DNA of 64,000 nt, taken from IMG/VR virus record IMGVR_UViG_3300002494_000025, positions 1 to 64,000 of that record, one strand, 5' to 3'. This stretch comes from a virus. Made by a program: the position numbers and the translations under genes. Positions 6,853 to 62,053 of the stretch are shown here, piece by piece. The notes beneath the pieces were generated by a model that worked only from the letters and a program-made list of their open reading frames with translations, did no database searches and was not told where the DNA came from. Every line of letters starts with the position of its first letter. Positions within the stretch are counted from its first letter, which is position 1.

Positions 6853-8151
6853 GTGAATTGGATGCCTAATGCAATTCCAAAGAATTACAATGCGATGTTA
6901 CAAAAATATTTCGACAGATACACAGAAAGCTATTGCAAAGAGCATAATCTATTTATCAAATACGATAAAAACAAAAATCCAATCGCGCTAACAAGAAAGA
7001 TTATCGATTACGTTGACGAAATAGTCGAAACTGATTACAACCTCATCGTGGGTACTGGCTTTGGTGTTAGAAGCACAAACAAAGAGCTTGAAAAATTGCT
7101 CAACGATTTCGTTAACACGAAAGAATTCCAAAACATGTTTAGACTTTTTATTCTGCAAGGTCTTGTGACAGGTGACACTTTTGTCAAGTTCGGTATAGAC
7201 GATGACGGAAATCCCGTACTGACTACAATACGGCTTGACAGTGTTACAATACTGTACGAGAATGATTTTGATAAGATTTTGAAATGGTATTTACATTATA
7301 CGGGCATAAAAGCTGATGGAACATCAGTAACAGTTGATGAGGAATACAGCTTTGACAGAGTCAAAATCACAATTGATGGCGAAGTGATTAAGGACATACC
7401 AAATTCCTTTGGCAGAATGTGGGTTATTCACGCAATCAATCTTCCTTCTTTGCGTTACAAATTTTTCGGTGAATCAGAGCTCGAAAAAGCTTACGAGACA
7501 GTCGATGAGATAAATTCTACATTCTCACGAATCGCTTCAATAGAAACAGTATATGCCATACCGAAGTTGATTATGTCTGGCTTGAAAAGTAAGGACAGCC
7601 TAAGTGAAAATGATAATGTGTGGGCAGTTAGTGAGAACACAGAAATTAAGATACTTGAATACCAAGGCGATGTCATACCAAGTATGCTTAACAAAATTGC
7701 AGCACTCGAAGAGTACTTCAGGTCAAGGTTCCCAGAGCTTGTGTTAAGTAGTGTCAAAGAAAGTACAGGCTATGCACTTAAGCTCAAGCTGCTTAAGCTT
7801 ATCAAAAAAATCGAAGCATACAGACGTAATTACTTCGGTGCGTTAAAAGAAGCTTTGAAACTTGTTGCCTTACATTTGGGTTACGAAGACGATTTCGAAA
7901 TCATTCCAAGCGACATCATACCGCTGGACGCGCAAGAAGAAATCCAGCGCTATCTGATGATGTATAACCTGGGCATCATCTCAAGACAAACTATAGCAGA
8001 AGAGCTTGGCTTGGAGTGGAGAAGAGAACGCGAAAGACTGGAAGAAGAAGGTGACTTTAGATTCGCAATGCCAAATTACGAATTCAAAGGTAAAGCAGGC
8101 AATCCAGGAAAAACAGAGATTAGAAAAGGGGAGGATGTGAATGGCGTATAA
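6853..8151 (+). CDS. Portal protein (SPP1-like)
   Basis: 432 aa directly after TerL; FGESELE, STGYALKLKL and GIISRQT motifs typical of SPP1-type portals. Confidence 0.8.
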   Translation: MNWMPNAIPKNYNAMLQKYFDRYTESYCKEHNLFIKYDKNKNPIALTRKIIDYVDEIVETDYNLIVGTGFGVRSTNKELEKLLNDFVNTKEFQNMFRLFILQGLVTGDTFVKFGIDDDGNPVLTTIRLDSVTILYENDFDKILKWYLHYTGIKADGTSVTVDEEYSFDRVKITIDGEVIKDIPNSFGRMWVIHAINLPSLRYKFFGESELEKAYETVDEINSTFSRIASIETVYAIPKLIMSGLKSKDSLSENDNVWAVSENTEIKILEYQGDVIPSMLNKIAALEEYFRSRFPELVLSSVKESTGYALKLKLLKLIKKIEAYRRNYFGALKEALKLVALHLGYEDDFEIIPSDIIPLDAQEEIQRYLMMYNLGIISRQTIAEELGLEWRRERERLEEEGDFRFAMPNYEFKGKAGNPGKTEIRKGEDVNGV

Positions 8152-8842
8152 GAAGTATCGTGAAGAGCTCAAAAGAGCATTCTGGAGAGCGGCAGACAGG
8201 CTTTTTAACCTAAGCACAAGGTATGTCTTGGAACGCTTTGTGTTCGAAGACGTTCCTGGAATCGCGCCAACAAGTGTTTACTTCGCTTCACAAATCCAGA
8301 ACACTGCACAGCAGCTTGAAAAGGATTTGGTTAGCATTGTCAAAAGTAATACTGATTTCCCAATCGCAGGTTCTTTAGCCGAAGCAATGCATGTTAACAT
8401 TGAAACATTATTCAAAAATTACCAAGGCGAACTTGAACAACTTGTGAATTTTTACTTGCAAAATAAGGCTCCCGAAATGGCAGAAAGCGATTTTAAAAAA
8501 ATAATTCAGCAAGCAATTCGTGAAGTCACAAGGCTTGTATATAAATCCTTTGCCGCAAGATTGCTTTCTTTGATACGCTGGTTTGTGTTTGTGCATTATA
8601 TCGACTATTACGAAACTTCTGGCGATTTCGAAGTTACCTACATTCCGTTGCTTAAAGGCAATTTCCATGCTGAAATATGCAAAAGCAGAGCAAAATTGTT
8701 CAAGAAGATACCCTTCAGCGAAGTTTATGACTTGTTTAAAGCCAACGCAAGAGAGTACAAAGGATACACAATCGTAGAAAGCGAAAGAGGCACATTCCTA
8801 AATCCACATTACGGCTGCGATTCTATGTGGTTTGCTATTTGA
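8141..8842 (+). CDS. Putative minor head/morphogenesis protein
   Basis: Position after the portal; C-terminal C...PHYGC resembles the head-morphogenesis HPxC motif. Confidence 0.5.
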   Translation: MAYKKYREELKRAFWRAADRLFNLSTRYVLERFVFEDVPGIAPTSVYFASQIQNTAQQLEKDLVSIVKSNTDFPIAGSLAEAMHVNIETLFKNYQGELEQLVNFYLQNKAPEMAESDFKKIIQQAIREVTRLVYKSFAARLLSLIRWFVFVHYIDYYETSGDFEVTYIPLLKGNFHAEICKSRAKLFKKIPFSEVYDLFKANAREYKGYTIVESERGTFLNPHYGCDSMWFAI

Positions 8843-22484: not shown

Positions 22485-25400
22485 ATGTTTGCAATTACTG
22501 ATGTAAGCAATGACAACCTCAAGTCCGTCTATCTTGCAGACAAGGCCTTCAAAGTAGAGATGAAATACAAAGATGGCGCTTGGAAAGACATAACCAGCTA
22601 TGTAGAGGCAATAGAAATTTTCGAACAGCTCACGTACGACGGGAACAGCCCGATGAACAAAGTCGGCATCAGCCTGAGCAACATCAATGGGGAGTTCTCA
22701 CCCGCAAAGGTGGGGGCTCCTTTCAATGAGCCTGTTGTTACAGGCTCTTCACGCACATTCTTGACAACCAAATTCCCAATTCGAATCAGCGTAACAGCCA
22801 ATAGCACGACATATACGATTTTTAGAGGCTATGCGCACACAGTTAAGGACGAAGGTTTGAAAGCGGCAATAGAAGCTTACGACATTCTCTATTACCTTGC
22901 ACGCAAAAGGTACAAGAAAGCCCTGAGCTTTGCCAATAAGACGGCGAAAGAAATTGTGCAAACAATTTGGAATGATGTTAAAGGCAAGATAGAAAGTGAT
23001 TTCGGCACCGTCATCGCACTGACTTTCATTCCGGACACACCAACCAGCAAGGCACTAATAAACACCGATGCAAAAACTTATCTTGATGCCCTAAACAAGA
23101 TAGTTTCCGGCACTGGCGGTTATTTCAACTACAGAGCTCTCACCAATGAGCTGATTTTTGTATTCATGGGGGATGCAAGCTACGCAGAACCTTCCACCAC
23201 AAATGCTGTATCTTTTGCAACTACAAATACAATAAACAAGTTTAATTTAGAGCAGCCGGTGGATGTTACAAACTCTGTGACTGTCAGCGTAGATACCTAT
23301 GTTGACAAATACAATCCACCGCAAGCAGTTGACGATTGGTGGTACAAGTCCTTTGTCGACAAAGATGGCAAATTTGCACCAAACAACGGGATAATGCTAC
23401 CTGCAGGCTCTGTATCAAGTACCGATATTGATTTTGGGAGGGTTGGTTACGACCCAGAACAGCAGCTTGTACTGACGGTGTTTACATACTCTGTGGAAAC
23501 AAAAAACGATGGTGGCAAGATATATATAGCTGGTGGAAAGAAAATTGTCGCCATCGATTTTGGCAGTAACTTTTCAACTCCTGTTCCGTTTAATGTCAGT
23601 TTGGGCGATTGGGGGATGATAAAGGTACTGGATTACCAAATCAAAGCGCAAGGCGTCTGGTTAAAGATACAAAACAACACAGGGCTTAATCTTTCCATTG
23701 CTGAAGTAAGAATGCGTGTGAAGCCGTTGCTTGAAAGTGGCAAGAATACTGCGGAGTACAAGGTTAACGATCCAGACAATGAAATTTTCGTGGAACAAAG
23801 CATCGATGCAATATTTATAGAGCAAGGCGCAATGCAAAAGACAGCACAAGCTGTTCTGAGGCTTAGAGGCGCGCGAATCACCGGCGAGGTAGAGCTTTCC
23901 CAATTTGCCCCATTCCTAACAGTTGGCGGTGTGGTTAAGGTAACGCTACATGACACAAACTTTAACTCAACCGATGTGCTATTGACCGAAGTGCAGCACG
24001 CAATAAAGAAAGGGCTGTGCACTACAACCTTCCGGTTCGCTCATGTATTCTCACTTGCCACTACTGTCGCAAACGATTTGACCAGACCTGTGATGCCTGA
24101 AGCTTCCGGTGGAGCAAATATTGTAGGCAGCTTGTTGCCGCCAAGTACATTCGATGTCGACAACGAAAATCGGTACCTAAAAATCAGCATACCAAGAGTG
24201 AAAGAAGGCAACGGCAAAGAAAGCATTGCCAGATACTTTTTCGGCATCGACTGGGTTGAGACAGCTTCCTCTACTTTGTCCAAGCTCTATACATTTCTTC
24301 CACAGCCAGGCTATACATTCACAAGAAACAGTGTGGCATACTTACCAGCAGGTCCCTTGGTGGATGCAGGCAAGCCAAGACTTATAAAAAGCAAAACAAT
24401 ATCTATCGATGGCCCTACGACAAACTTAATAGAGCAGTTTGAGCCTGGGGCGAGTCAAGATTGGAGTATGTGGAACCATTGGAATAATGGAGCATACTGG
24501 TATTCCACCACTCAATACGACGATCCAGTTTGGGGCAAGGTTTTTTATGGTAGAGCTAAACGTGATGCGTGGGGCAATACATATATTTACAACTATTCAT
24601 CAAACATACCTGTTAATGCAGGTGTAACATATATTCTTAGTTTTTACATCAAAACGAACACGGACCGCACACAGTCATTTCTGGCCTACCTTACCCCAGA
24701 TTATAGTAACACTGTCGTTGCAACTGCCACACGAACATACAATCTCAGAGCAAATGAATGGATAAAAGTTGAACTACCACTTACACCCAACGTATCTTCC
24801 AACATACAATATGGTGTTCGATTTACAAATGTCCCAGACGGTCAAGAGTTCTGGATTGCATATCCACAAATTGTAGAAGACAAATACCCAGGTCAAGATT
24901 GGAGTAAATGGTCACATTGGGGTAATACATTGTATTGGAACACCAACATACAGTACGACGATCCAGTTTTTGGAAAAGTATTTAAGGGTGTTGCAGGTAA
25001 TGAATACAATAAATATTTGTATGATTATTATCCGTATACGTTTGTACCTGGCGCCATATATACAATGAGTCAGTAGGGTGTAACAAACTTGATAGACCAA
25101 TGGGAACCTGGGGCAAGTCAGGATTGGAGTAAATGGGACCATTGGAATCAGACAACATACTGGTACTCCACAACACAATACGACGATCCGGTTTGGGGGA
25201 AAGTTTTTTATGGTAGAGCCAGACGTGATGTGAATGGTCACACATATATTTATAACTATTTACCAACAGTAACTATTAATGCAGGAACCACATATATAGT
25301 TAGTTTTTATGTTAAAACGAACACAGATCTTGTACAACCGTTTAGGGTTTACTTTACCAGTGTTCATACTTATAATTCCGTTAACGTTCAAGTAACACGA

Positions 25401-26717
25401 ACATACAATCTCAGAGCAAACGAATGGACGAGAGTTGAACTGTTATTTACACCTTCTCAAACATATTCCAATCAAAAATATGGTATTGAATTTGTAAACG
25501 TCCCGGACGGTCAAGAATTCTGGATTGCATATCCACAAATTGTAGAAAATCAATATCCAACTCAAAACTAGAGTGTACTGGCACAATATACAATGGGTAT
25601 TTGGTTACGTGGTGATACACAATGGACTGGAAATGTACGATTTTACGTTAATAATGCATCTACTAACCAAGCTTTACCAAATGGTGATCAAATTAAAACA
25701 ATTACCATCGATACCAATTGGAAATATTTTACGTGGACAGTAACACCTACTATAACACAAGTAACAACCGGTGGTTTGGGTATAGAATTTCAAAATCTAC
25801 CAGGGGGTTACACACTTTATGCATAGTTACCAAAATTTGAATAGAATACAACATAGACGGAATTTTTACCACTTCCAGTCTATGTACAAAAATCCGATTA
25901 TCCATTTCCAATTTTTAACCTAAATAATCAGTTTGACTTAAGATAGAATCAAGATTGGACAATCACCTTTGAATATATACCCTTTAACTCCGATACACAA
26001 ACATTGTTATCGAACCCAAAAACATTCACACTGTTTAGTTTGGGAACCCTTAATCCAGCAAATATAAAAAATATAAAAGAATATAATTCTGATGCAATGG
26101 ATTTCGTAAAAAGTTTATAGTTTTATGTGTCTCAATTGTTGGTAACATCTAATAATCTATTCGTACCATATAATATTAATATAGATAATCTATTAGTTAC
26201 AAATACACAAATTACTCTCACTTTAATGAGTCAATTTCAACACTATTCTGGTGAAAACGTTATTGTCACATCTACCTCACCAGTGACTATATAGTTAAAT
26301 GACTTCCTATTCAAAAAACACTTGGTTATCGTTACATATTCTAACACCACAAAAACCTTAACAACTATTGTAATACTATCAAACAATCAGATCTTACAAA
26401 CAAACATTCAAATTAAATCAACTGTAGATGATGTTATGTGGACATTTAGATATTTATCTAATATGAACTATACCGACGGAGATTTAATACTTGGTGGTGT
26501 TATTGATTCTAAACAACTAATTAGTAGTTATAAATTATAGAGTTTTGTATTTAGACCAATTACTATATAGAATGCATTATACAAGAATCTTACATTAGTG
26601 AAAAATTATTATACGAATCCAACAAATCTCAATACAAATGTATTTACAAGTATTACACTGGGAAAAGATTTACAAAGACGAAATTCAAACGGCTTTTATA
26701 ACGTATTAATTTTATAA
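22485..26717 (+). CDS. Tail/receptor-binding protein spanning the segment junction; 1410 aa if TAG is read as sense (10 in-frame TAGs, all from 25074 on)
   Basis: Track ORFs 22485, 25089, 25593 and 26322 share one frame, are separated only by TAG, and the first TAA is at 26715. Repeated QDWSxWxHW...QYDDPVWGKVF modules; YA*LPKFE*NTT*TEF resembles the E.G..AT.F ending of carbohydrate-binding-like modules. Confidence 0.7.
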
Positions 26718-28705: not shown

Positions 28706-28751
28706 TACAATCATATACTCCAAATTGTCAACATAGAAGGATGTGATAATA

Positions 28752-30236
28752 ATGTCAAATGTAATAAAACAGTCTGTAACGAAGTCAAGAAATATTGATA
28801 GTTTGAAATTTGTATAGATTGAACACGAAAGTAGTTAGGTTTGTAACCTATAGTGTAAGTATTGTTATATTCCCAAACTTTCATCATAGACAAAAACAAA
28901 TCAATTGATCATTGAGTCAATCAAAAATGGAACATTCGTTGATTATCTAAAAACAATATATGATAAAGATAAACTTGAGTCGTACTCATTATGGGGTACA
29001 GAACCAACAATATTAATACCAGTGTTTATTAAATATAACTTTTTTGAAACACTACTCAACGAGTTTCCCAAACTACACACATTTTCATTATCTACAAATT
29101 TAATTAGAAATATTCATACACTAATCACATTTCTAGAACATGTTGATGAATTGTAGGTTAAGTTAAATAGACACATTAATATTGGTATACAATTGAGTTT
29201 AGATGGTATTAAGGAAATTAATGATAAAAATCGTATTTTGATTACCGGTGATGAAAACCATGAGATTGGTTCTTTTGATTTAATACTTGAAACTCTGCAA
29301 AAATTATCGGAATATTATAAAACACATGAATTCAAAAATATCCGAATATCACACAACTATAAACCAACAATTGATGGTGAAGACATTAAATGGTTATTAT
29401 CAACTCCAGAAAAATTACTTGAAACACATAAATTGTTTGAGTATATTACATCGTTGTTTTTAGATGTTAATAAGAATGTTTCAATTCAGACAGGAACATC
29501 ACTCACATTAGCAGTTCCTGGAAGTTATACACCTGAAGATGGTGTGAATTTTTAGAAACTAATACAGATGTTACACGATGAAGTTGTTCCATATACACAA
29601 TCTCATAATAGTACATTTGTATTTGTAGTACCATATGTACATGATCTTGTACAATTACTTAGTAACACACTTGTTAATATTGATACCCCACGAACAAGAA
29701 ACAATTCAGCACTCTCTTGTTCTTAGGGTGACACAATGATTGGACTCTCTCCAGATGGTCAAATAAGTATCTGTCATTCCACATTTTTCTTCTCAAATCC
29801 AGAGTATCTCAAAATCTTCCTTGACACACCATAGTATCAATTAAAACAACGAGACTTTATAAAACAATATTAGATACTGACACCCAACATTAATAGTCCT
29901 AATTATGAGTTTGAAGAATAGAGATTATTGTATGTAATACGTAGTTATCACGATTACTTACGTATGAGAAAAGATACAATATAGACACAACTATTATTTA
30001 CTGCCAAGTATGGTAATTCAAATGTTGACAAACTCCTTCTTGAAGATAAAACATATTTACAAATTTAGTAGTTGTTTTTAACATCAAGATTTGCATGTCC
30101 ATTTAATTCAATAGCACTAACAGGTACACTACATACTCAACCACAATCAATAATTAATATATGGTAGTATGGATAGTTTAGAAAAATCTTCAAATATGCA
30201 TTGGATGAAATGAAAACAATTGTAAGAAGGGGTTGA
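28752..30236 (+). CDS. Radical SAM enzyme with twitch/SPASM-like region, recoded (494 aa)
   Basis: CNL*CKYCY (CxxxCxxC), LWGTEP, QLSLDG, CS*GDTMIGLSPDGQISICH; only TAG interrupts the frame, ends TGA. Confidence 0.88.
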
Positions 30237-30241
30237 TATAT

Positions 30242-31837
30242 GTGATTGTGGAAGTCCAAATTACAGATACAAGTGATGAATATAAACAGTCAAGTAAACA
30301 AATAATCAGTAACTATTTAAACGATACATATTTTAAGTAGTGGAGATTAATATACAAACTCAGAAAAGAACACCCTGAATTTTCAAGAATGGAATTAGAA
30401 AAATTACTACCAAATCAAGTAGTTGTTCAAAGTGCACTTGAACTAAATTTTGGTACAAACTGTTCTACAACATGTACGTACTGTTACTTGGATAGATTTA
30501 GTCGAAAAAGTGGTAAATATGATGAAACCAAATTGTATCCATTTAGTTATACACAATATGAAGAAAATTTACGAAAGTTTTTAAAGTTCTTAGAAATTAA
30601 CAAAATGACACCAATATCAATTGACCTGTTTGGTGGAGACACGATATTTAATAAATATGGTTTACTCACACTTGATATATTGTATGAACACTATTCTAAA
30701 CTCCCAATAGAGTACAAACCATTTGAAATTGTAATTCCAACAAATGGTACATGGATTAGTTCAGATAGTTTAACCGAAAAATAGATATCATATATTGAAA
30801 AATTCCGTAACATTGGAATTGGTTTGTTTTATTCATTGTCATTTGATGGATTGTTAGAATTACATAACAGACCAAGTTTAATTGAACATGTACTACAACG
30901 TGATAAAAAATCAGAAGAATATGTTGACAAAATGTTTCGATTATAGAAACAATATCATATGGGATTCCATCCAATGGTTTACTCTAACAAGATTGAATAT
31001 TGGATGGATAACTTTATCTGGTTCCAAAAAATGTTTTACAAGTATGGTATTAACCCATTTAGTTTGTATCTATTGGAAGTACGTAATGTTGAATGGTTAC
31101 CACGTCAATAGGTTGAGTTGGGAACATTTGTCAGATTTCTAACAATATTTGCACATAAAGTGTTTGGGTATGTGGGAAATACAATTGTTGTGGATGAAAA
31201 TGATATGAAACAAAGAGAACGATTTCAACAATAGTGGAATATTTTGAATAGTCCATTTACAAAAATATATCGTGGTGTTGGATGTTCATTACAAACAACA
31301 TTACAACTATCCGTATAGGAATTAACAGTATCACCATGTCATAGAAACAACTATAAAAATCAAGTCGGTTTCAAATTCATAATCAGTGATAACAATTACT
31401 CACTTGATATTGAACCATATAATTTTGAATATTATATGTTACTTAAAACATACAATGTAACGAACCAACCATATTGTCAAACATGTATACTCCGAAATAC
31501 TTGTAGTGGACTTTGTCCTGCATCACAGTATGAGAACTTTGCAGAACCAACCGTACCAATACCAACCACCTGTATGTAGGAATATTTTAAAAATATTGGT
31601 ATCATATACACATTATCGGAACTTGGATTTATACCACAACTTAACAATAATTATTCAATGGATTTAATCATGAAATTTATTCAAGAAAATCCTAAATTTG
31701 TAAAGTTGTTAAAATCAAAGGAAGATGTTATTCACCAAAAAATACAACAATTTAAAGAATTAACAAGTATTCAAAATGTTGATAGTATACCAATATTTAC
31801 GGATTATGAACGTAAAATTTTTTTCAAGGAGGTATGA
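30242..31837 (+). CDS. Radical SAM/SPASM enzyme, recoded (531 aa)
   Basis: CSTTCTYCY, LFGGD, PTNG, SLSFDG, GC...PCHR, CQTCILRNTCSGLCP..C SPASM cysteines; GTG start, ends TGA. Confidence 0.88.
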
Positions 31838-47299: not shown

Positions 47300-49948
47300 T
47301 TAAATTATTCCCCCGAATAATGTGTACAGTTGTTGAACATTGTTATTGGTTGTTACAGTACTCAGTATATCGTTAATAATTTTTTCAGACATAAAACTTT
47401 CAAATCGTCTAACAAACTGTTCATAGATTGAAAGATAATCGACTTTTATTGTTTTGTCATTAGTTAGAATTTCTTTTACAATCTTGGTATCATTTTCCTT
47501 AAATGAAAGGTAACCACTTATTTCAGTAACCTTTTTTCGTTTCTCATTAAAAATTTCTCTTGCCACATTAAAATATTTTGATGTATTAAGTATTTTTACA
47601 GGAATTACATAAATTTTTTGACCAATAAGTTCGTTATCGTCATAATCAATATCCATAACATCTTCCGCGATATACTTGAATAACTTCCAACCACGTAGAT
47701 GATATGGATCAACTTTATACTCCAGCGTTGTAAGTGTTTTCGACTCTGCAATTTCTTCAAGATGTGTAGTTTCAAGTTCGTTATAAATTTGTACAAATAA
47801 ATCCTTCATGTCTTTTTCAGATATATTATCATTGGTTACAAGTAACATAAACAATTGACGTAGTTTATTTTTCAAAAATTGTGGAAAATCAGACCTTGCC
47901 AAGTCAACACCTTTATATATTTCCTTCCCATGGTAATCAAACCCGTAGTAACGTTTTTTCACACCAAAGAATTTTACACGTTTAAACACTTTATCAATTT
48001 CCATTCTCAGTGTATTGATTTGTCTTAGTTCTTCATCACTTATATTCTGTATAATTTCCTTCAAAAAATCTGGTATTTTGTTATTTACATGTTCCCTTAT
48101 ACGTTCAGCACATACTAATGTAACTTCTTCGTTATCCATTATTACCGGATTTATAAATATAAACTCGATAAATACACTGTCTGTATCACCGTATACTACT
48201 TTAGTTAAAAATGTATACTTAAACCCATTTATATCTTCTCTCCAAGTTTTATCATCAACATAGTCAATAACACTTCTTATCAAATACCTTCCTACAGATG
48301 TAATTGATAGTGCAACATCTGTATTGTAAAATGTAAAATATTTTGTTCCGAACACCCCATAAATACTATTTGCCAAAATTTTATAGTTTAGTTGTCTATT
48401 ATAGTATTCCATATTATCGGGGTGTTCTTTACTTAGTTTCTTATAGTAGAATCTCATTTCTAATATATTTCTTATCATCTTTCGTATAAGTGTATCTTTT
48501 TGTAAGAAGTATACGTCACGAACACCTGTTAATTCTTTGTTGATATGTGTATATTTCACAGGTTCTGTGGGTTTCTTTACTGGTTGGATATCTATACTGC
48601 ATGTCAGTATTATATTTGGGTATAGTGATGCAAAGTCTAAGACTACGACGTTTTTATGTACTCCATCATCCGGGGTATGTACATATGCACCGGTGTAACT
48701 TTCATCGTTGTTTTCCTCGGGATCTATATTCTTTACACCAGACGTAAAAGGCAACAACACATTTTCCTTCCATGCAAATAGATTCAAATAACCTTCGACT
48801 GTGTATAAGGTACTCATGAGTTTATCAAGATTTATTGGAACAATTTCGTTAAATGAATTCAACAGTGTAATTAATTTTAATTTTTCTTCGAGTTTGACCA
48901 GTATCTCAACATCACGTATTATGTAACTTAAAAAACGTTTGTAATCATCAATATGTAGATATCCCATCTTTTCTGTTTTTCCAAATTCTAATCCATTGAT
49001 TTTTGCAATATTATCCAGACCCCAACTTGTTGGTGTCTCTGGTATAAATTTTTCGTATAATTCTTTATAATCAATGAAATAAATCATTGGTACATTTATG
49101 TAATATACAACACCACGTCCACCTTGTGCAAATTCCTTAAAGTATGGTTTACTTATCTTATACTCATTGGAATCAAAGGATAAAAAATCATTGAATAATC
49201 CATGTTGAATCAGTCGTTTGACCAAGTATGGAATATCATACATGTTAGAAAACCATCCTGTAATTATGGATGGTTTTTGTATTTTCACATAAATTAAAAA
49301 TTTATCCAACAAGTCCACTTCATCTTTTGCAATGGTGATTTTAGTCTTTATGTTGTACTGTTGGTGGTATTCTCTTTCATATTCAATTACATCCTTAGGA
49401 TTATTAACTTTAATAAATTCAGTGTTAATGATAGTATAATACGTATTGTCGGTATTGTTATACCAGGTGATAGAAGTAATTGGCATCATCGCTTGTTGAG
49501 GTTTGTTCCATCCGTGTTTAAGTGCTTCCGGTGTAGAATACACTTCTATGTCCAACATCCAATATGTTCTATCGAATTGAATATCCTCAACAGTAAACAA
49601 TCCTACATCTTTAATAAAATTTCCCACAATAAGTTTTCGCTTTTTCAACCCTGCTAAATATCTCACAAATTCATTCTTAAATTCTCTAAATGCATAATAA
49701 TCATGTTTGTCATCTTTTAGAAAGACTTCATAAATTGATTCACCATTCAACCCAGTAAAGTTTGTCTTTTTTACACCGATATTAATGTTTTTCTCCTTCA
49801 AAAATGATTTCAAATACTGTAAACCTTCCTCTACCAAATAGAAGGAAGGTTTCATTTTAAGAATATTTAGTTTATCTTCCGTCGTGTGTATCAAAAATTG
49901 ATATTTATCTTTATCATAATACAAATTCTTAATTTTCATATAAACCAT
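47300..49948 (-). CDS. Family B DNA polymerase with 3'-5' exonuclease
   Basis: LDIEV ExoI, YDIPY, DFASLYP, K...NSIYG, YGDTDS, KKRY. Confidence 0.96.
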   Translation of the reverse strand: MVYMKIKNLYYDKDKYQFLIHTTEDKLNILKMKPSFYLVEEGLQYLKSFLKEKNINIGVKKTNFTGLNGESIYEVFLKDDKHDYYAFREFKNEFVRYLAGLKKRKLIVGNFIKDVGLFTVEDIQFDRTYWMLDIEVYSTPEALKHGWNKPQQAMMPITSITWYNNTDNTYYTIINTEFIKVNNPKDVIEYEREYHQQYNIKTKITIAKDEVDLLDKFLIYVKIQKPSIITGWFSNMYDIPYLVKRLIQHGLFNDFLSFDSNEYKISKPYFKEFAQGGRGVVYYINVPMIYFIDYKELYEKFIPETPTSWGLDNIAKINGLEFGKTEKMGYLHIDDYKRFLSYIIRDVEILVKLEEKLKLITLLNSFNEIVPINLDKLMSTLYTVEGYLNLFAWKENVLLPFTSGVKNIDPEENNDESYTGAYVHTPDDGVHKNVVVLDFASLYPNIILTCSIDIQPVKKPTEPVKYTHINKELTGVRDVYFLQKDTLIRKMIRNILEMRFYYKKLSKEHPDNMEYYNRQLNYKILANSIYGVFGTKYFTFYNTDVALSITSVGRYLIRSVIDYVDDKTWREDINGFKYTFLTKVVYGDTDSVFIEFIFINPVIMDNEEVTLVCAERIREHVNNKIPDFLKEIIQNISDEELRQINTLRMEIDKVFKRVKFFGVKKRYYGFDYHGKEIYKGVDLARSDFPQFLKNKLRQLFMLLVTNDNISEKDMKDLFVQIYNELETTHLEEIAESKTLTTLEYKVDPYHLRGWKLFKYIAEDVMDIDYDDNELIGQKIYVIPVKILNTSKYFNVAREIFNEKRKKVTEISGYLSFKENDTKIVKEILTNDKTIKVDYLSIYEQFVRRFESFMSEKIINDILSTVTTNNNVQQLYTLFGGII

Positions 49949-52553: not shown

Positions 52554-53672
52554 TTTGACAATCACATAAATGATAATATTATACTCAATACAATAATTGA
52601 ACTACAATCAAATGATACCAACAATGATTATATTTTGTATACAAATGATGTGTAGTTAATCTTAAAATAGAAAATGTTCAATGTTGAAACATATACAAAT
52701 ATTAAATTTATTGACATTGAAAATTTTCATACCCACCAGTTCAGAATTGTTAAGATAACAAACGACGATTTTGAACGTTTAATACCTGTCATAGAACGCA
52801 ATCGCTTCGAATCAAATGACATAATTATCAATCGTACTGAGTATAACGTTGATCATAATTCAATTGATTCATATTTCTACATTACAAATGAAGAACAAGA
52901 TGTAAAATACTTATTCAGAAAATTAGATGGTAATACATAGAGGTTTGTATCTATAGAGAAACTATTACATGCATATCTAAGTGAATATCAATACGAAAAC
53001 TATGGATTAAAGATAATTAAACCACGTGACGATGAACAGTTATAGCTACTTGATAGTTTCTTTACAGATACACTAATAATATCATTATAGAAGTCTGGTA
53101 CTGGAAAGACATTGTTATAGTTGTTTTATTAGATAACAGAAGTACTTAAAAATAGACTAAATAAAACGTTAATACCAAAAACATATTCAAAAATTATCTT
53201 TATCGCCAATAATTCAGTTATCCAACCCCGTAAAGAGTTGGGTTTCCTACCAGGTAGTAAACATGAGAAAATATTACCATTTATGAGTGGTATCATCGAT
53301 AATTTAGATTTTCTCTTTAATGGAAATATTAATAATGACTTTGATATAACAAAAACAGATGTGAATAGTCTATTTGAAATCCGACCAATTTAGTACATCA
53401 GAGGTTCATCAATAAATAATTAGATCGTAATTGTTGATGAAGTTCAAAATCTAACATGGCACGAATTAAAAACAATAGTGACACGTGTGAATACATCAAC
53501 ATCAAAATTAATTCTCATTGGTGATATACATCAAGTCGATGAAACAATGTAGATAGATTATCTTGGTATTATGAAATTGATCAATGTATTGTTTGATTCA
53601 AACCTACAAAATTGGAATTATATACCACTTACCACAAGTTATAGAAATATGTTCACAAACACACAAACATAA
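52554..53672 (+). CDS. phoH: PIN-PhoH (PhoH2-like) ATPase, recoded; start codon uncertain
   Basis: PIN tail NDNIIL...ILYTNDV*LILK*K; PRDDEQL*LLD; [12 protein letters not shown]; [15 protein letters not shown]; [22 protein letters not shown]; GDIHQVD. Confidence 0.88.
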
Positions 53673-55545: not shown

Positions 55546-56220
55546 TTAGATAGATTTTTGTTTTTGACTATATAGTTTTAGCAATTGTGAAATACCGTCT
55601 TTTAGTCTGTATGTGTCTATCACAAAAATTATAAATTTCTCACCAACTGTAATTACAATTTCACAATATTTATGTAACAGTAAATTATTGATAAATCGTT
55701 CATCCATAATTATATATGCACTATTGTACAATTCTGGATAAAAAACTGCATACATATCAGTATACGGTTTTACATTACTTTTAATATTTTTATTATTTTC
55801 TTGTTCTTGTTGTAACGTATCAAAAAATCTTACACTTGTCAACCTAACTGCGTATACTTCTTCGTTAAATTGTTTTATGACCTGAACGTTTGGGGAATCA
55901 ACTGTTAGTCCGATTGGTTCGACAAATTGAAATGCAAAAAACATCTTTTTGTGAGGTAAACTGATATTAATCATTAATTTGACAAATTGCTGATCATCAA
56001 TTTTACCATTGATTATGAAATCTGTTGTACTATAAAGAAAAGTATCAAAGAGTGGATATGTATCATAACGATTTTCTGTATACATAACCCAATAACCAAA
56101 ACTTTCAATTCTTGTTACACTATATACCGACTGTGAAAACAGAATTACAAACAATACAAACACAAACATGTTTAGATATATGTATGACCTTTTAATTTGA
56201 ATACTCATTATTAAACCCAC
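55546..56220 (-). CDS. Putative secreted/membrane protein
   Basis: N-terminal hydrophobic signal-like segment. Confidence 0.55.
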   Translation of the reverse strand: MGLIMSIQIKRSYIYLNMFVFVLFVILFSQSVYSVTRIESFGYWVMYTENRYDTYPLFDTFLYSTTDFIINGKIDDQQFVKLMINISLPHKKMFFAFQFVEPIGLTVDSPNVQVIKQFNEEVYAVRLTSVRFFDTLQQEQENNKNIKSNVKPYTDMYAVFYPELYNSAYIIMDERFINNLLLHKYCEIVITVGEKFIIFVIDTYRLKDGISQLLKLYSQKQKSI

Positions 56221-56238
56221 CTCCCAAAAATTAAATAG

Positions 56239-56553
56239 TTAATTATTCTGTACCTCAAGTTTAATTGTTACCCAACCGAACATTTTTTTGATGTTATTAT
56301 ACTCAGGATGTGGTTCAAATCGTAATACAGGTTTAACTGGTTTTATTGTGTAGATTTCATTTAATGGAATTATTTTCCACTCATTACTATCTTGTACACG
56401 AACCAACAACACTGTATTTTTATTTTTTATTAAATTTGTTCCAACTAGATATGGTTCACAGACAATATCGTTTATTTGTATACATTCTTTATTTACTATG
56501 TTATTTTCCAATTGTTTGATTAACTCCCTTTGTGTATATACACTCATACTCAC
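56239..56553 (-). CDS. Hypothetical, degenerate WYL-like protein
   Basis: CEPYLVG....N.VLL...WK.I.L.EI....P...F.P.PEYN parallels the WYL protein at 59937-60293. Confidence 0.5.
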   Translation of the reverse strand: MSMSVYTQRELIKQLENNIVNKECIQINDIVCEPYLVGTNLIKNKNTVLLVRVQDSNEWKIIPLNEIYTIKPVKPVLRFEPHPEYNNIKKMFGWVTIKLEVQNN

Positions 56554-56571
56554 ACCATCTCCTCATATAGT

Positions 56572-57741
56572 TTAATTCAATACTTTTAGTAATTCACGTG
56601 CAAGAAAACGGATAACTGGGACTGAAACTGAATTACCTGCTTGTTTGTACAGTTTACTTGTGGGATATGGTTGATTTCTATAAGTGGTGGGTAGTTTATA
56701 ACCATTATCAACAGGGAAACCTTGGATCTTAAACGCTTCTTTTGGTGTTATCATCCGGATTCCGTCTGGAACTCGTACAATAGTCATGTTAGTTGGATGT
56801 GTAGATGATGCGACTAATGCAGGACACAGTCCAGATTTATTTTTTCGTACATAGGAATTCCTTCTAATTTGGTAGAACCAATACATTTCATCAACTTCCT
56901 CTTCAAGATTGATTCTATTCTTTGGTCTTTTATCTGGTGGTAATTTCTCATACTCTTCCTTTGATACAAACAGATATGGATACTTTTCTTTTGTATAATA
57001 ATATTCAGGGTTATCTTTGATATTGATGTTAAGATCTAGTACATTCATACGTTCTTCCATTAATTGTTGAGGTGTTTTCCTGATTTTATATTTTTTAAGA
57101 TTGTTACCATCAAACAATGTAAATTTATCAACATCTTCTTTATTCAGAAATGCAAGAATATAGATTCTTGATCTGTTTTGTGGTAGTTCTGTATAATCTT
57201 TTGTGTTTATAACAGCATCTTTGACGGTATATCCCAAATCTTCAAGTGTAGTTCTAATAACTTTGTATGTATTTCCCCCATCATGTCGTTTTAAATGACT
57301 AACATTTTCCAGGAATAAAACACGTGGTTTTTTACCGAACACCTTTTCATGTTCAATTACAACATCCACGATTCTCCAGAACATTTCCCCCCTTGGGTCT
57401 TCAAATCCAAGTTTCTTACCTGCCACTGAGAAAGGTTGACATGGAAATCCAGCAGTTAGGATGTCAACATGATGAGAAAACATATCGTTCTTCAACTTCT
57501 TGTAATAACGAATTAGTTTAATGTTTTTTGCTAATTCCGGTTTAAGTATTTTTACAATATCACCATGTAGAATTCTGTGGTTGAAATTAGTTTGTAACGT
57601 TACAACTGCATAATTATCTATTTCATTTGACCAAATGATCTCGTATTTTTTATTTTCAACATCCTGGGTGGCAAGTATGAACCCCATTTCTATTCCACCC
57701 ACACCTGCAAACAGACTACCAACATAAAATAACTTCTCCAT
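56572..57741 (-). CDS. DNA (cytosine-5) methyltransferase
   Basis: FAGVGG, GFPCQPFS, ENV, PQNRSR, R.ITPKE...QGFP, YKQAGNSV motifs. Confidence 0.95.
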   Translation of the reverse strand: MEKLFYVGSLFAGVGGIEMGFILATQDVENKKYEIIWSNEIDNYAVVTLQTNFNHRILHGDIVKILKPELAKNIKLIRYYKKLKNDMFSHHVDILTAGFPCQPFSVAGKKLGFEDPRGEMFWRIVDVVIEHEKVFGKKPRVLFLENVSHLKRHDGGNTYKVIRTTLEDLGYTVKDAVINTKDYTELPQNRSRIYILAFLNKEDVDKFTLFDGNNLKKYKIRKTPQQLMEERMNVLDLNINIKDNPEYYYTKEKYPYLFVSKEEYEKLPPDKRPKNRINLEEEVDEMYWFYQIRRNSYVRKNKSGLCPALVASSTHPTNMTIVRVPDGIRMITPKEAFKIQGFPVDNGYKLPTTYRNQPYPTSKLYKQAGNSVSVPVIRFLARELLKVLN

Positions 57742-57839
57742 TATCCACTACCCCCATAACCAATCTAATAATATGTTAGATTTTGTAATTAAAAAAACGG
57801 GTGTAATGTAAAAAACAACACCCGACATAAACATTAAAA

Positions 57840-59108
57840 TTATATCCGCATCGGTATTAACACATAAAAGTATGTAAGCTCACTATCAACTGGTGATATT
57901 TTGACTGGACTGACATTATCGACAAACTTAAACATACATTTACTTGTGTCTATATGTTTTATGATTTCGCTTAACAGTTTGGGGTTAAAACTAATAATCA
58001 AGTCACTTCCCTGTTTATCCACAATATCGAGTTCATCAATAACTTCACCAAAATCGGAACTTCTTACTATAAATCTTGTAATGTTATTAGTAATTTCCAG
58101 TACAAGTTTTTCCCCACTTTTGTTTGACAAGACTGATATATGTTTCAATGTCTCTTTCAATTTCTCTGTGTCGAACACTATCATAGTACTTGTGTTAATG
58201 TTAACAACTCGTGAATAGTCTGGAAATTTATCTTCAACAGTCCTGGTGATAATTTTTATATCGCCGGTATCAAACATCACAACTGAGGTATTGTATGATG
58301 TAGACACATTTATTTCTGGTTCTGTGGTTGTAGTTACTAATTTGTATATCTCTTTCATCGTTTTAAGATCTACAAGGAATTGAATAGACTGATTAATTGA
58401 TGTTTGAATTCTATCCGATGTTAGTCCTAGTCTATAACCATCAGTACCCACCAAAGTTAACTCATTATCTTTATTGACTAACCACAATACTGAATTCAAA
58501 TTCCTTAAATTGTAATCTGTGGATGTACAAAACAGTACCTTATCAATTAGTTCTTTTAATATGGATGTTTCTACTGTAAAAACATTATCAGTTTCACTTA
58601 CAAGAGTCTCAATATCTGGGAACTTATTCTCTTCAGAGTATGTTGTAAGTGTATATTTGGATTTTCCACTCTTGATAATTAGTTTACCATCATCTGTATG
58701 ATACATAAATGTAAGAACGTCATCTTTATCAAAACTTTTAACAATATCAAACAATAGATCTGATCTTACAAGAAACTTAGTTTCGTTACCACTACCACCA
58801 CTACCACTGAACTCGTATTCACTAACATTGATACTTGTTACAATTGTAGTTTGAAGATTTGTTGATACTAACTTAACCACTGGTTCCTTATCCATAAAAC
58901 CATTTTCAACTTTGAACAATATACATTGAAGTGTTGGATCAACTGTTCTAGAATTGGTAATATCATCAAGTATTTCAATTTTGTTGATAATATGATATTG
59001 TTTTACATTAAATGACACCACATTCTTTTTCAACATACTTTCTTCATTTAACCTCCTCTCAAAATTTTGTATGTTATTAACAATATACACAAGTTGTACA
59101 TTTACCAT
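57840..59108 (-). CDS. dnaN: DNA polymerase III beta sliding clamp
   Basis: P.L..IL, STNL, KFPD, GTDGYRL, KFPDY.RV, ISFNPK.L, YVLIPMRI; start uncertain. Confidence 0.9.
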   Translation of the reverse strand: MVNVQLVYIVNNIQNFERRLNEESMLKKNVVSFNVKQYHIINKIEILDDITNSRTVDPTLQCILFKVENGFMDKEPVVKLVSTNLQTTIVTSINVSEYEFSGSGGSGNETKFLVRSDLLFDIVKSFDKDDVLTFMYHTDDGKLIIKSGKSKYTLTTYSEENKFPDIETLVSETDNVFTVETSILKELIDKVLFCTSTDYNLRNLNSVLWLVNKDNELTLVGTDGYRLGLTSDRIQTSINQSIQFLVDLKTMKEIYKLVTTTTEPEINVSTSYNTSVVMFDTGDIKIITRTVEDKFPDYSRVVNINTSTMIVFDTEKLKETLKHISVLSNKSGEKLVLEITNNITRFIVRSSDFGEVIDELDIVDKQGSDLIISFNPKLLSEIIKHIDTSKCMFKFVDNVSPVKISPVDSELTYFYVLIPMRI

Positions 59109-59119
59109 CTTTAATACTT

Positions 59120-59899
59120 TTAATACCCTCTTTTTTGTCTATCAAAATTTTCGTGATTTTTCGTCATATAATGAATTATCAAATCTTCCAAACTTCTTTT
59201 TCCATCAAAATTAATAAACAACTCTGATAATATCTCATGTAATTCATTTGTAACTTTCAAAAACTCGGAATAATCAATATTATAATCCTGTTCTTTATAT
59301 GTTTTCCAATATTTCCATGGGAATAAATTTAAAAGTTTGGACAATTTAACAAATCCTTCAAACACTAGATCATTATATGTTGTAACGTTTTTGTATGGTG
59401 TGTCGAATGTAAAATTAAATGTTGACATCATATCGTTAACAACCTTTTCCACAATAACCTTTTGGTATGTTTTATCACTTACATAATTATCAATCTGATT
59501 ATTTAATTTATCGTTAATTATATTAACTATCAGTAACAATTGTAACAAGAAGTGATAAATATCAATTACTTCATAACGACATTCAACTTTGTACTCACTT
59601 AGTCTAACAATATGTTCGGCATTTGGAAGTTCATCAATCCAATTTTTAATTTCAACAAACTCATCAAACATTGCAAGTATTGTCTTTTCAGCCAGATCTT
59701 TGAATGTTAATCTAGATTGTTCCCAAGTTGGAAGTATTTTTCTTTTTATGATATCAATCATTAGAGAGTTCTGTAAATCAACCATATAGTACAAAATTGG
59801 TTTGTTAGATTGTTTTTTAAATTCCTCAATTTGTTGTTTCATTTGTGGATAGTATTGTATATGTATCTCAAACTGTGACTGTCGGTGTTGTCCCATCAT
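59120..59899 (-). CDS. Dimeric all-alpha dUTPase
   Basis: DEFVE, EVIDIYHF, PWKYWK, KNHENFDRQKRGY. Confidence 0.85.
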   Translation of the reverse strand: MMGQHRQSQFEIHIQYYPQMKQQIEEFKKQSNKPILYYMVDLQNSLMIDIIKRKILPTWEQSRLTFKDLAEKTILAMFDEFVEIKNWIDELPNAEHIVRLSEYKVECRYEVIDIYHFLLQLLLIVNIINDKLNNQIDNYVSDKTYQKVIVEKVVNDMMSTFNFTFDTPYKNVTTYNDLVFEGFVKLSKLLNLFPWKYWKTYKEQDYNIDYSEFLKVTNELHEILSELFINFDGKRSLEDLIIHYMTKNHENFDRQKRGY

Positions 59900-59936
59900 T
59901 TATTACCCCCTTTTATCTTAATGACATTCTATTCTG

Positions 59937-60293
59937 TTATTGTCTCTTGACATTTACGATGATTCTGGTCATTGCTTTATCATCTGGATTGTACTCTGGT
60001 CGTTGTGTTGGATCAAATTTTACCAAGATACCCTCAGACTGTAATGGTTCAACGTACTCAATCAACTCAACGTTAAACAACTTCCACCCTTCGGAATTTC
60101 CTGAAGTACTATAACCACTTTGTTGAAATGCACGTAATAATGTGTTACCAAGTCGGTTTACACCCAATACATATGGTTCCACAATACGTTCCCGTGGTTC
60201 ACCACGATATTTCAGTTTTACTACAGTTCTTTTTCTAATACTTTTCACCAGTACATTAATAATCTCATTTACACTCATCACCATACTTATCAA
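59937..60293 (-). CDS. WYL-domain protein
   Basis: VKLKY...RERIVEPYVLG...LRAFQ...GWKLF.V..I. Confidence 0.8.
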   Translation of the reverse strand: MISMVMSVNEIINVLVKSIRKRTVVKLKYRGEPRERIVEPYVLGVNRLGNTLLRAFQQSGYSTSGNSEGWKLFNVELIEYVEPLQSEGILVKFDPTQRPEYNPDDKAMTRIIVNVKRQ

Positions 60294-60343
60294 CCTCCTT
60301 CTTTTAACTTGTGTCTAATAATAATATATTGGATTTTGCAATT

Positions 60344-62053
60344 TTAACTGTCTAAACTCTCAAATAGTTGTTTGTTAAAATTTTCAATTTCATAAATCAT
60401 TAATTCATCAATATTTCTAAGTTCATGTTCATCGAATCTATCAATACCGAACAACATATCAAACACCTCGATTTTGGGATTGAGTATTTTGTTTAATACG
60501 TACTTATCAAATAACGATAATAAATTTATCACAATCCCGTCATTAACTTTCTTGTGACGTAGTCTATATATTCTTCCAACTCGTTGATTCATTTTAGCAG
60601 GATTGTATAGTTGGTCGTAATTAATCAGTACATCCAAATCAAGATTTACACCGGTTGATAACACATCTGTTGCAAGGATTATATACTGTTTTAAATTTTT
60701 TAATTGAGAACGATTGATTTGTTTTTTACTTGAAAACACAAATATGTTTTTATTTTTGAATATTTCATTCTTGGTAAGTAGTTCATACAGATGGTTAATG
60801 ACAGTTTCATAAAATGAGAAAATTATAACTTTTTTGTTACTGTATGATTGAAGAATGTCAAATATTTGTTTATCTTTGGGAGACATATAATTATCCCAGT
60901 CTACAGTTTTAACATACTTAGACAGTTCTGGTAGATATTTAGACTTATGTACAGTTTGTTTAATGATGACTGGATTATTTAATATCTCACGTAAATAGAT
61001 GAACCGTACAATGTTTTTAACAAGTGGGTGTGATATATTATTTGTTTCTTGTTTGAGGATTTGTATCATCTGTTTCTGAAGATTTTCCATACCAACATCA
61101 ACAGAAAAAGTATGAATATTTTGAAGGTATAATTTATCGATAACAACAACATCTGTTTTCCTCCTTCTTATATAAACTTTTGTTTGTTGTAATATAGATT
61201 TTAATTCATCCAAATTTTGATATTCGTACTTAGTGAACTTACCATTTTGAATTGGTGTTACATACCGTTCTATAAGTTTATTGGTCCAAATATCCATACC
61301 GTAAAACATAACTTGTAACAAATTAAAGAGTTCAATAACATGATTTTCAATTGGAGTGGCAGTGGATACAATAGTGAATGTCTCCGGTAAGAACTGGTTA
61401 ATAAACTTTATTACTTGTGTAACTTGGGTGTTGGAATTTTTTATTTTTTGTGCTTCATCTAATATTAACAATGTATATGAACTGTTATTTTTAATTTTGT
61501 TGAGGAAATCTACAATTAAACTAACCTGTAATTTGTCAGTTGTTCTAAACAAATCATAGTGTGTTACAATTAGATTAAATTTATTCAATTCATTTGTTGT
61601 ATAAAGTGATTTTTTATCAGTTAACAAAACAATGTTGAGGTACTTATGTAAATTATATTTTTTAATTTCTTCAAGAACATCAAATTTAACATTTTTAAGT
61701 GTAATATAGATTGTAGTAAATGGTTTGTTTATCGACTTGAAATAATCAGTTAACAATAATGTTGAAGACAGTGTTGACAGTGTCTTACCTAACCCAGTAT
61801 CGTCTGCCAATATAACGCCATGTTTTTTGAACAATATACCATTGAATATCTCATTTAAAAACTGTAAGAATTCAACTTGATGTTGTTGTAGTGTAATTTT
61901 GTACTTTGACTGTATCTTAATCTTATCAATATCAAGTCTTATGTTGGTGAACGTACTAATATATCTATTGTCACTTGGTGATATGTTATTTAAAAACAAG
62001 TATAAGTTGGTACTATATTCTTTTATGTGTTCAAACATAAATTCACCATCCAC
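60344..62053 (-). CDS. SNF2-family helicase
   Basis: ILADDTGLGKT, LDEAQKIKN, TATPIEN, GVNL, YNPA...QRVGRIYR. Confidence 0.92.
   Translation of the reverse strand: MDGEFMFEHIKEYSTNLYLFLNNISPSDNRYISTFTNIRLDIDKIKIQSKYKITLQQHQVEFLQFLNEIFNGILFKKHGVILADDTGLGKTLSTLSSTLLLTDYFKSINKPFTTIYITLKNVKFDVLEEIKKYNLHKYLNIVLLTDKKSLYTTNELNKFNLIVTHYDLFRTTDKLQVSLIVDFLNKIKNNSSYTLLILDEAQKIKNSNTQVTQVIKFINQFLPETFTIVSTATPIENHVIELFNLLQVMFYGMDIWTNKLIERYVTPIQNGKFTKYEYQNLDELKSILQQTKVYIRRRKTDVVVIDKLYLQNIHTFSVDVGMENLQKQMIQILKQETNNISHPLVKNIVRFIYLREILNNPVIIKQTVHKSKYLPELSKYVKTVDWDNYMSPKDKQIFDILQSYSNKKVIIFSFYETVINHLYELLTKNEIFKNKNIFVFSSKKQINRSQLKNLKQYIILATDVLSTGVNLDLDVLINYDQLYNPAKMNQRVGRIYRLRHKKVNDGIVINLLSLFDKYVLNKILNPKIEVFDMLFGIDRFDEHELRNIDELMIYEIENFNKQLFESLDS

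Follow-up and report, generated by a model that had tools for sequence, protein, structure and literature searches.

Why should a phage that has removed nearly every silent GpC dinucleotide from its genome keep a DNA methyltransferase (MTase) of a family that acts on GC-containing sites, and why should that enzyme carry a rewritten recognition loop? The question is raised by a gene at positions 56572..57741 (minus strand) of IMG/VR virus record IMGVR_UViG_3300002494_000025, a record of 135,374 bp whose first 64,000 nucleotides form the stretch analyzed here (the window). An earlier note, made from the letters of this stretch, described the gene as a phage C5-MTase resembling GCNGC-family enzymes with an altered recognition region, and suggested that a relaxed GC-targeting enzyme in a thermophile phage either causes erosion of GpC or protects the sites that remain. 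The observation is confirmed and the interpretation is partly supported: the gene encodes a natural C5-MTase of a Bsp6I-like clade in which the segment corresponding to recognition Loop 2 has been replaced in a lineage-specific and conserved manner. The features on which the argument turns are as follows.

56572..57741, minus strand: C5 DNA methyltransferase coding sequence (open reading frame list, PF00145, TIGR00675)
57427..57447, minus strand: motif IV with the catalytic cysteine, F99-P-C-Q-P-F-S105 (invariant alignment columns)
56788..56874, minus strand: peptide quoted in the earlier note, YQIRRNSYVRKNKSGLCPALVASSTHPTN, residues 290-318 (translation, alignments)
56770..56826, minus strand: rewritten TL/Loop 2 segment CPALVASSTHPTNMTIVRV, residues 306-324, where the family reads CPTLTANMGTGGHNVPLIK(V/T) (alignments)
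57751..57756, minus strand: Shine-Dalgarno-like GGGGGT, 9 nt upstream of the ATG at 57741 (sequence reading)

A single open reading frame (ORF) on the ORF list lies exactly at 56572..57741; it begins with ATG, encodes 389 amino acids (aa) and has no in-frame TAG. Its product matches PF00145 across residues 7-385 (E = 1.1e-67, 229.3 bits against a cut-off of 22) and TIGR00675 (6.3e-75, 252.8 bits against a cut-off of 100.65), and no other PF00145 match occurs in the 135-kb record. By sequence, its best matches in the PDB are M.HhaI chains (5.7e-33; ∼27% identity), and M.HhaI is also the top fold match (Foldseek E 6e-20) of an AlphaFold2 model with a pLDDT of 87.2. The catalytic motif set I, IV (with the nucleophile cysteine), VI, VIII and X is complete, with FAGVGG, GFPCQPFS, ENV, QNRSRIY and GNSVSVP occupying invariant or near-invariant columns of two family alignments; motif VIII, QNRSRIYI, spans residues 188-195, and motif IX/X consists of RMITPKEAFKIQGFP at 329-343 and GNSVSVPV at 369-376. 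Position 103 is proline here and alanine in the family. The profile matches, the motifs and the M.HhaI fold bear out the identification of a phage C5-MTase, and the protein is intact and complete. Translation starts at the ATG at 57741. A 420-aa ORF obtained by reading through TAG was considered as the gene and ruled out, because the N-terminus of the 389-aa product matches the N-termini of its homologues and the Shine-Dalgarno-like sequence stands at 57751..57756.

The peptide YQIRRNSYVRKNKSGLCPALVASSTHPTN lies between motif VIII and motif IX/X, in the variable target-recognition region. Within this region the Loop 1-like segment, YQIRRNSYVRKNKSG, is near the consensus of the family alignments, and it is the TL/Loop 2 segment that has been rewritten. 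In a collection of 5.8 billion proteins the closest relative is a metagenomic protein, P0001, 89% identical to the MTase, and the next 119 listed homologues (P0002-P0120; 377-459 aa) are 46-54% identical over their full length, those with names being chromosomal enzymes of Bacillaceae and Clostridia. An exact 14-mer, CPTLTANMGTGGHN, is present in 116 of the 120 best homologues, and P0045, P0100 and P0107 have one change each in it, all at the same position. Only the MTase and P0001 read CPALVASSTHPTN instead, a string that departs from CPTLTANMGTGGHN by seven substitutions and a one-residue deletion and from which three glycines are gone. A word search of the same collection with the target-recognition domain (TRD) only, residues 283-332, yielded a single match, P0001. 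The divergence of this segment exceeds chance drift by far, and the altered recognition region described in the earlier note is real in the sense that a string exact in 116 of 120 homologues has been replaced here. The rewriting is not a by-product of GpC avoidance, since the family motif needs GC for alanine only and the T308A change adds a GC-containing codon.

Kinship with GCNGC enzymes holds up equally well. Plasmid-borne matches form a second tier at 35-38% identity, and one of these, a 315-aa MTase of a Bacillus altitudinis plasmid (L082:3004-3951; 36.9% identity at 99% query coverage by tblastn), lies directly downstream of a gene annotated as a 'Bsp6I family type II restriction endonuclease', whose product scores 27.8 bits against Pfam RE_Bsp6I (cut-off 25). 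At the aligned site this MTase reads YQWRRKYVRENKSNVCPTLTANMGTGGHN, identical to the string that the earlier note gives for M.Bsp6I. The Bsp6I-linked enzymes and the long-form Bacillaceae and Clostridia clade share CPTLTANMGTGGHNVPLIK unchanged despite ∼40% overall identity; this shared 14-mer is the one basis for assigning the long clade to GCNGC, because no known endonuclease family was seen at the two close loci among the matches listed. The target of M.Bsp6I itself is given as GCNGC in PMC2790894. Together these comparisons support descent of the phage MTase from a clade that includes Bsp6I-type GCNGC methylases, with its recognition Loop 2 apparently rebuilt along the way.

Taking the plasmid enzyme as a stand-in for M.Bsp6I-type MTases, the phage MTase resembles these in all C5 motifs and in a common YQxRR..YVRxNKS segment ahead of the TL position, but the Bsp6I-type enzymes lack an insert of ∼70 residues common to the phage MTase and the long clade, carry CPTLTANMGTGGHN rather than CPALVASSTHPTN, and adjoin an endonuclease of their own, which the phage MTase does not. 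The long-form clade is the closest kin outside the phage lineage and has the same domain layout and TRD length, but whereas it keeps the 14-mer exactly or with one change in 119 of 119 members, the phage MTase has lost it and has also replaced four of 11 family-conserved alanines (A38S, A103P, A204V, A371S). Some long-form members have neighbors reminiscent of restriction-modification (R-M) or T:G repair, and at least two close loci, among the matches listed, were inspected for these. At L001 the homologue sits beside a controller-type helix-turn-helix (HTH) gene and a 374-aa ORF without a family match (1689-3119); at L002 an HhH-GPD/endonuclease III-like glycosylase (7499-8188) is directly downstream of the homologue, with a DUF6339 cluster also present, and this glycosylase possibly serves T:G repair of deaminated 5-methylcytosine (5mC). 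Unlike these, the phage MTase has neither a glycosylase nor a controller HTH as a neighbor.

Among phage records the best match reaches 37.9% (Oenococcus phage phiS11), all 1132 records falling below 60%, and IMG/VR searches with the MTase, the siphovirus-type capsid and the alignment of the phage TerL gave no relative closer than ∼32%. The only related DNA found is a 5.7-kb contig, L084, which encodes P0001 and is collinear with window positions 55982-61216 at 77-80% nucleotide identity. Comparison of the two MTase genes gives pS 0.55, pN 0.063 and dN/dS 0.067, and the rewritten loop is 100% identical in the two proteins. The gene is therefore under strong purifying selection, with the new loop likewise maintained; the possibility that it is a pseudogene was dropped on the strength of the dN/dS of 0.067. 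It also appears to be solitary, with no partner endonuclease in the record: no RE_Bsp6I match at E<=1 occurs in the 135 kb, which is judged 76% complete so that absence elsewhere in the phage is unproven, and the five ORFs adjoining the MTase have no significant match in Pfam, PHROGs or NCBIfam.

What might the altered loop recognize? The placement of Loop 1 and Loop 2 on the MTase is provisional, made from spacing to motif IX and from M.HhaI residue numbers, of which those outside 270-321 are approximate. By our own count the TL position stands 21-22 residues before the RK(L/M) of motif IX, a spacing comparable to that in M.HhaI (target GCGC), the best structural match; the profile search aligned just the catalytic and C-terminal parts of the two proteins, leaving the TRD without a sequence alignment, and comparison of the MTase TRD with solved structures returned nothing relevant. 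For M.HhaI and M.HaeIII, PMC2790894 reports that the 5' part of the site is read by Loop 1 and its 3' part by Loop 2, that changes in Loop 1 inactivate the enzyme, and that changes in Loop 2 are often tolerated, with lower activity and a degenerate specificity resembling the part defined by Loop 1; the Loop 2 contacts of M.HhaI are made through main-chain atoms. The same source describes engineered Loop 2 variants of M.HhaI (M.HhaI-L2Bsp, GCG hemimethylase) in which shortening or rewriting of Loop 2 relaxes the 3' part of the target. Because the Loop 1-like segment is kept here and the TL/Loop 2 segment is minus three glycines and one residue, and given this M.HhaI precedent, a GC-core target is predicted, and we infer that a target still starting with a methylated GC, its 3' half changed or shortened, is the most economical expectation. 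The 'relaxed GC-targeting' specificity put forward in the earlier note is thus reasonable as a prediction. Those variants are laboratory constructs, whereas the phage enzyme, only ∼27% identical to M.HhaI, would be their natural counterpart.

Viral C5-MTases without a partner endonuclease are familiar from the Bacillus phages SPR, phi3T and SPbeta and from the chlorella virus GpC enzyme M.CviPI, where they evade restriction and several of them cover GC-containing sites. The SPR/phi3T-type enzymes have several TRDs; the phage MTase probably has one, judging by a length equal to that in the monospecific bacterial clade, and no Bacillus SPbeta-like phage appears among the top 30 phage-record matches.

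The genome in which this enzyme resides is extreme in its composition. The record falls into two compositional compartments, of which the phage compartment, 25.1-132.9 kb, belongs to a T4-like myovirus with a Gp23 capsid, T4 baseplate protein, sheath, prohead protease and its own TerL, together with a UvsX/RecA-like protein, B-family polymerase, clamp, PhoH and NrdD/G. It is 28% G+C with a GpC odds ratio of 0.24, and contains 578 GpC in 105 kb (∼5.5 per kb), nearly all in alanine codons. Counted in phage ORFs of at least 100 aa, GpC per 100 codons amounts to 1.37 for phase 1-2 (the alanine codons) and to 0.22 and 0.23 for phases 2-3 and 3-1, respectively; the latter two represent silent GpC, which stands at 4.0-5.7 in the Fervidobacterium-like part, so that the phage shows an 18-25 fold reduction. 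Alanine makes up 1.4% of phage residues, with GCA as 71% of its codons, and AGC, GGC and CGC account for 1%, 2% and 0% of their codon families. Depletion extends to every one of the 16 NGCN contexts; TGCA has the highest odds ratio, 0.64, and the others lie at 0.11-0.42, with AGCC at the bottom (0.11). In the MTase gene, 13 of 13 GC dinucleotides are alanine codons, nine of them GCA. The erosion of GpC on which the earlier note built is thus both real and severe.

The GpC-normal compartment (28 kb in all; positions 1-24.4 kb and 132.9-135.4 kb, the latter being L088:12909-15374) contrasts with this in having 39-45% G+C, a GpC odds ratio of 1.2-1.6 and the standard code. It holds a second, siphovirus-type set of TerL, portal, capsid and tape-measure genes and a full-length MutS 85-89% identical to Fervidobacterium MutS; in IMG/VR the record is classified as a provirus with 76% completeness. 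The left junction falls in a repeated carbohydrate-binding tail-fiber domain present in three copies at 76-85% nucleotide identity, window positions 24420-24880 being 85% identical to genome 129978-129518 (reverse strand) and 76% to 25083-25574. The sole sequencing run found to contain the stretch carries the label hot springs metagenome; it may be the source sample itself, hence not independent. Its Logan contigs include one of 19.8 kb with a mean word depth of 48 that ends at 24599 and one of 8.7 kb with a depth of 328 that starts at 25518, with pieces of 33-376 nt at depths of 120-694 between them. No listed contig spans 24600-25517, a gap to which no weight is given here; what counts is the pair of long contigs, whose depths put the GpC-normal part seven-fold below the phage part. 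The record is thus probably a chimera or a join of host or prophage DNA to phage, the GpC-normal DNA being no part of the genome that carries the MTase. The earlier note had implicitly taken the stretch as one genome with a GpC-normal part, a picture that the difference in depth (48 against 328) and the Fervidobacterium-like MutS do not favor; its thermophile setting, by contrast, agrees with the hot springs label and the joined Fervidobacterium-like DNA. Fervidobacterium is a candidate host, because the tail-fiber domain is shared. The GpC-normal part has 105 GCNGC sites and a GpC density of 58 per kb (5.5 in the phage), and since this DNA is probably foreign those 105 sites say nothing about what the MTase must protect. 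As a separate observation, this part, taken as window 1-24500 and genome 132000-135374, contains two CTAG where 69 would be expected, and has GATC at a ratio of 0.32.

A second peculiarity of the phage bears on when the MTase could be made. Its late genes are broken under translation table 11, with which ORFs of 150 aa or more account for 0.42 of the sequence; this fraction becomes 0.96 once TAG is treated as a sense codon, and gains less from TAA or TGA. The elements concerned are the following.

L087:17731-17806: tRNA-CUA
L087:17483-17558: tRNA-Ala(UGC)
L087:17813-18172: tmRNA (Rfam 204 bits), tag peptide ANEYIPLAA, directly after both tRNAs
L086:615-2237, minus strand: phage TerL, 22 in-frame TAG

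The tRNA with anticodon CUA has G3:U70 in its acceptor stem and A73, which together constitute the alanyl-tRNA synthetase identity set. The TAG codons of TerL were translated as Q, so that alanine was not favored, and compared at their columns with 94 distant homologues; the query and two close relatives were left out of the count, and multi-stretch or over-long matches among the 150 listed were left out of the alignment. Alanine fills 38.4% of the cells at TAG columns (6.05 times background) against 2.8% for glutamine (0.72 times background), and TerL's own GCN-alanine columns show 38.0% alanine, equal to the TAG columns. In the Walker B sequence 'DE-TAG-TAG' alanine is aligned in 72 and 90 of the 94, and in PhoH (window 52635-53672) six aligned TAG positions face A, A, A, A, G and H in PDB 3b85. 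TAG thus reads, by every sequence comparison made here, as alanine in this phage, and alanine can therefore be placed in proteins without a GC dinucleotide. The phage tmRNA could be relevant while the suppressor is still scarce and ribosomes stall at TAG.

P0122 and P0123, database proteins with 57% and 45% identity to the phage TerL, show Q at most of its TAG positions, presumably because gene callers assumed TAG to encode glutamine; if so, the publicly available proteins of this phage group have glutamine in place of alanine. The Gp23-type major capsid gene (genome 110866-112305, L087:9866-11305) has no TAG and 5.4% GCN alanine, against 1.3-5.5% TAG in other structural genes, so that the most abundant protein avoids the suppressed codon.

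With this setting in mind, the explanation that we tentatively favor, at somewhat less than an even chance, is protective self-methylation with an altered GC-core target, the enzyme's activity, substrate, target and role all being predictions. The MTase would be an active, solitary enzyme of a T4-like hot-spring phage, in which the Loop 1-like segment was kept and the TL/Loop 2 segment, responsible for the 3' part of the target, was rebuilt and then frozen in the phage lineage. Because its gene lacks TAG, the codon reassigned to alanine in this phage, the enzyme could be made by the host's unmodified translation from the start of infection; replicating phage DNA would then be methylated at the few GC sites that could not be removed, and GC-directed nucleases, whether the host's or the phage's own, would be left harmless to it. 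The early-type, TAG-free and solitary nature of the gene, its GC-site family and the ∼5.5 unavoidable GpC per kb all speak for protection, and the branch of the earlier note in which the enzyme protects remaining sites is compatible with everything seen.

Several points weigh on the other side. With GpC avoided to this extent a methylase might be superfluous, the two strategies looking redundant, and no GC-directed nuclease was found in PHROGs and Pfam scans of the phage ORFs. The TL threonine has become alanine, and work on T250 of M.HhaI reportedly suggests that such a change could lower activity. GCNGC occurs at eight sites in the phage part against 3.0 expected, and is thus neither avoided nor specially kept, and the contexts of the residual GpC point to no target, because dinucleotide bias and the phage tRNA-Ala(UGC) largely explain them. 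Inference of the target from residual GpC contexts or motif counts was accordingly rejected as uninformative, given background dinucleotide bias and codon effects.

A simpler possibility, which we regard as unlikely, is that the specificity is still GCNGC, the loop changes being neutral or thermoadaptive, and that the MTase guards against a Fnu4HI- or Bsp6I-like host enzyme. Clade membership and the conserved Loop 1-like segment agree with this, the eight GCNGC sites left in the phage part would suffice for lethal restriction, and the PDB holds, by its title, a ternary complex of M.HhaI T250G, so the TL threonine is not indispensable. It is difficult, however, to reconcile with seven substitutions, a deletion and the loss of three glycines in a 14-mer exact in 116 of 120 homologues and the same in Bsp6I-linked enzymes and the long clade at ∼40% overall identity, and the freezing of the new loop between lineages argues for a new constraint rather than drift. 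In M.HhaI, moreover, Loop 2 contacts DNA through its main chain and loop changes alter specificity (PMC2790894).

Protection of residual GC sites is also likelier than the other branch proposed in the earlier note, that the MTase is itself the cause of the erosion, with broad GpC methylation followed by hot-spring deamination of 5mC to T and conversion of GC to GT/AC; this we consider improbable. In its favor, AC/GT (1.26) and CA/TG (1.29) are raised in the phage part where GpC is 0.24, every NGCN context is depleted, the setting is a hot spring with thermophile DNA, and both MTase-bearing lineages are GpC-poor (0.24, and 0.33 in L084). Between the window and L084, however, residual GpC is kept (58.5%) as well as GG/CC (60.5%) and AC/GT (61.6%), a comparison that covers ∼65 GpC in 5.2 kb, nearly all of them selected alanine codons, and it is CpG that is lowest, at 39.7%. 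Silent GpC is down 18-25 fold, which goes beyond vertebrate CpG decay, roughly 4-5 fold, and neither MTase ortholog has any silent GpC after about one substitution per synonymous site. Erosion further requires a context-free GpC specificity for which we see no support; a self-mutating enzyme is not expected under a dN/dS of 0.07; the four alanines lost from the MTase became S, P, V and S, just one of these changes being of the C-to-T type; and the recruitment of TAG as an alanine codon resembles an adaptive response to a prohibition of GC. The proposal of erosion through 5mC deamination thus finds no support in the conservation data.

The CpG result is an observation in its own right: between window 55900-61300 and L084, CpG is the least kept dinucleotide, with TG/CA as the alternates, and it is moderately depleted in both (0.71 in the window's phage part, 0.58 in L084). 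The pattern is a CpG-type, not a GpC-type, decay signal.

A more far-reaching version, to which we likewise give little probability, would root the change of code in an epigenetic enzyme. Here the replacement of Loop 2 would have shortened the target from GCNGC to a GC core of 2-3 bp, so that nearly every GpC was methylated; in a host near 65-70 °C, GC-directed restriction and heat-accelerated deamination of 5mC would make GpC the costliest dinucleotide, and the lineage would purge it, lose most GCN alanine codons, and capture TAG by means of a CUA suppressor derived from tRNA-Ala.

Less probable still is that methylation serves as a mark of self against a phage nuclease directed at the GC-rich DNA of the host, the phage being spared by methylation combined with GpC avoidance. 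T4-like phages and chlorella viruses do spare their own modified DNA while degrading that of the host; the gene set here is T4-like (Gp23, baseplate, sheath, UvsX-like protein, B-family polymerase, NrdDG), Fervidobacterium-like DNA has 58 GpC per kb to the 5.5 of the phage, and many phage ORFs are without a family assignment, but profile scans of the phage ORFs found no nuclease of a recognizable restriction fold or family. Very unlikely, finally, is a role other than self-protection, be it methylation of host DNA, regulation (solitary MTases with regulatory roles exist) or an RNA substrate: tRNA methylases of the Dnmt2 type have this fold and are among the PDB matches, but at E values of about 1e-8 to 8e-5 against 5.7e-33 for M.HhaI, and the close relatives are all bacterial DNA MTases, some with R-M-type neighbors (the L001 HTH gene, the L082 Bsp6I endonuclease).

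By itself the MTase would be one more solitary phage methylase, and its value comes from its setting: a GC-site family member under strong purifying selection in a genome with near-zero silent GpC, 1.4% alanine and a reused TAG. No GpC-free or GpC-purged phage, natural TAG-to-alanine code or Fervidobacterium phage was found in the literature listings and abstracts covered, subscription journals lying outside them. Knowledge of the target would distinguish hiding of GC sites from a nuclease from marking and from eroding, and would turn the GpC purge and the code change into a testable mechanism; the MTase is the most experimentally accessible handle on this GpC-purged, TAG=alanine system. M.CviPI is in use as a footprinting tool, and a thermostable enzyme with a short GC-based target, if that is what this is, could serve as another.

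The surroundings of the gene are in keeping with an early-type function. The MTase lies within a replication gene cluster, between the clamp and small genes, and the replication genes, the MTase included, are free of TAG. The neighboring features and others of the replication functions are listed here.

57791..57824, minus strand: terminator-like hairpin CGGGTGT...ACACCCG followed by seven T, between the clamp stop and the MTase start (by eye)
57840..59108, minus strand: beta-clamp-like processivity factor, 422 aa with zero alanine, the upstream neighbor of the MTase (PHROGs, Pfam)
59120-59899: dUTPase/MazG-like gene (PHROGs, Pfam)
60344-62053: helicase (PHROGs, Pfam)
47300-49948: B-family polymerase (PHROGs, Pfam)

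The hairpin was identified by eye only and has no entry in the consensus scan, and a promoter scan gave no signal (23 sites against 24.1 in shuffles).

Two further regions of the record stand out. NrdD (L088:10946-12871; NrdG is at L088:10396-10962) is of intermediate composition, with 5.1% alanine and 22 silent GpC spread along the gene, and its G+C content at third codon positions climbs from 0.22 to 0.45 in the direction of MutS; recent acquisition from the host, a hybrid gene and the second assembly junction are the candidate explanations. In the myovirus late region, two adjacent TAG-containing ORFs (window 28725-30236 and 30233-31837; 503 and 534 aa) carry CxxxCxxC-type radical-SAM signatures, and of these only the ORF at 28725-30236 has a Pfam match, a weak one (1.4e-5) that falls below the cut-off.

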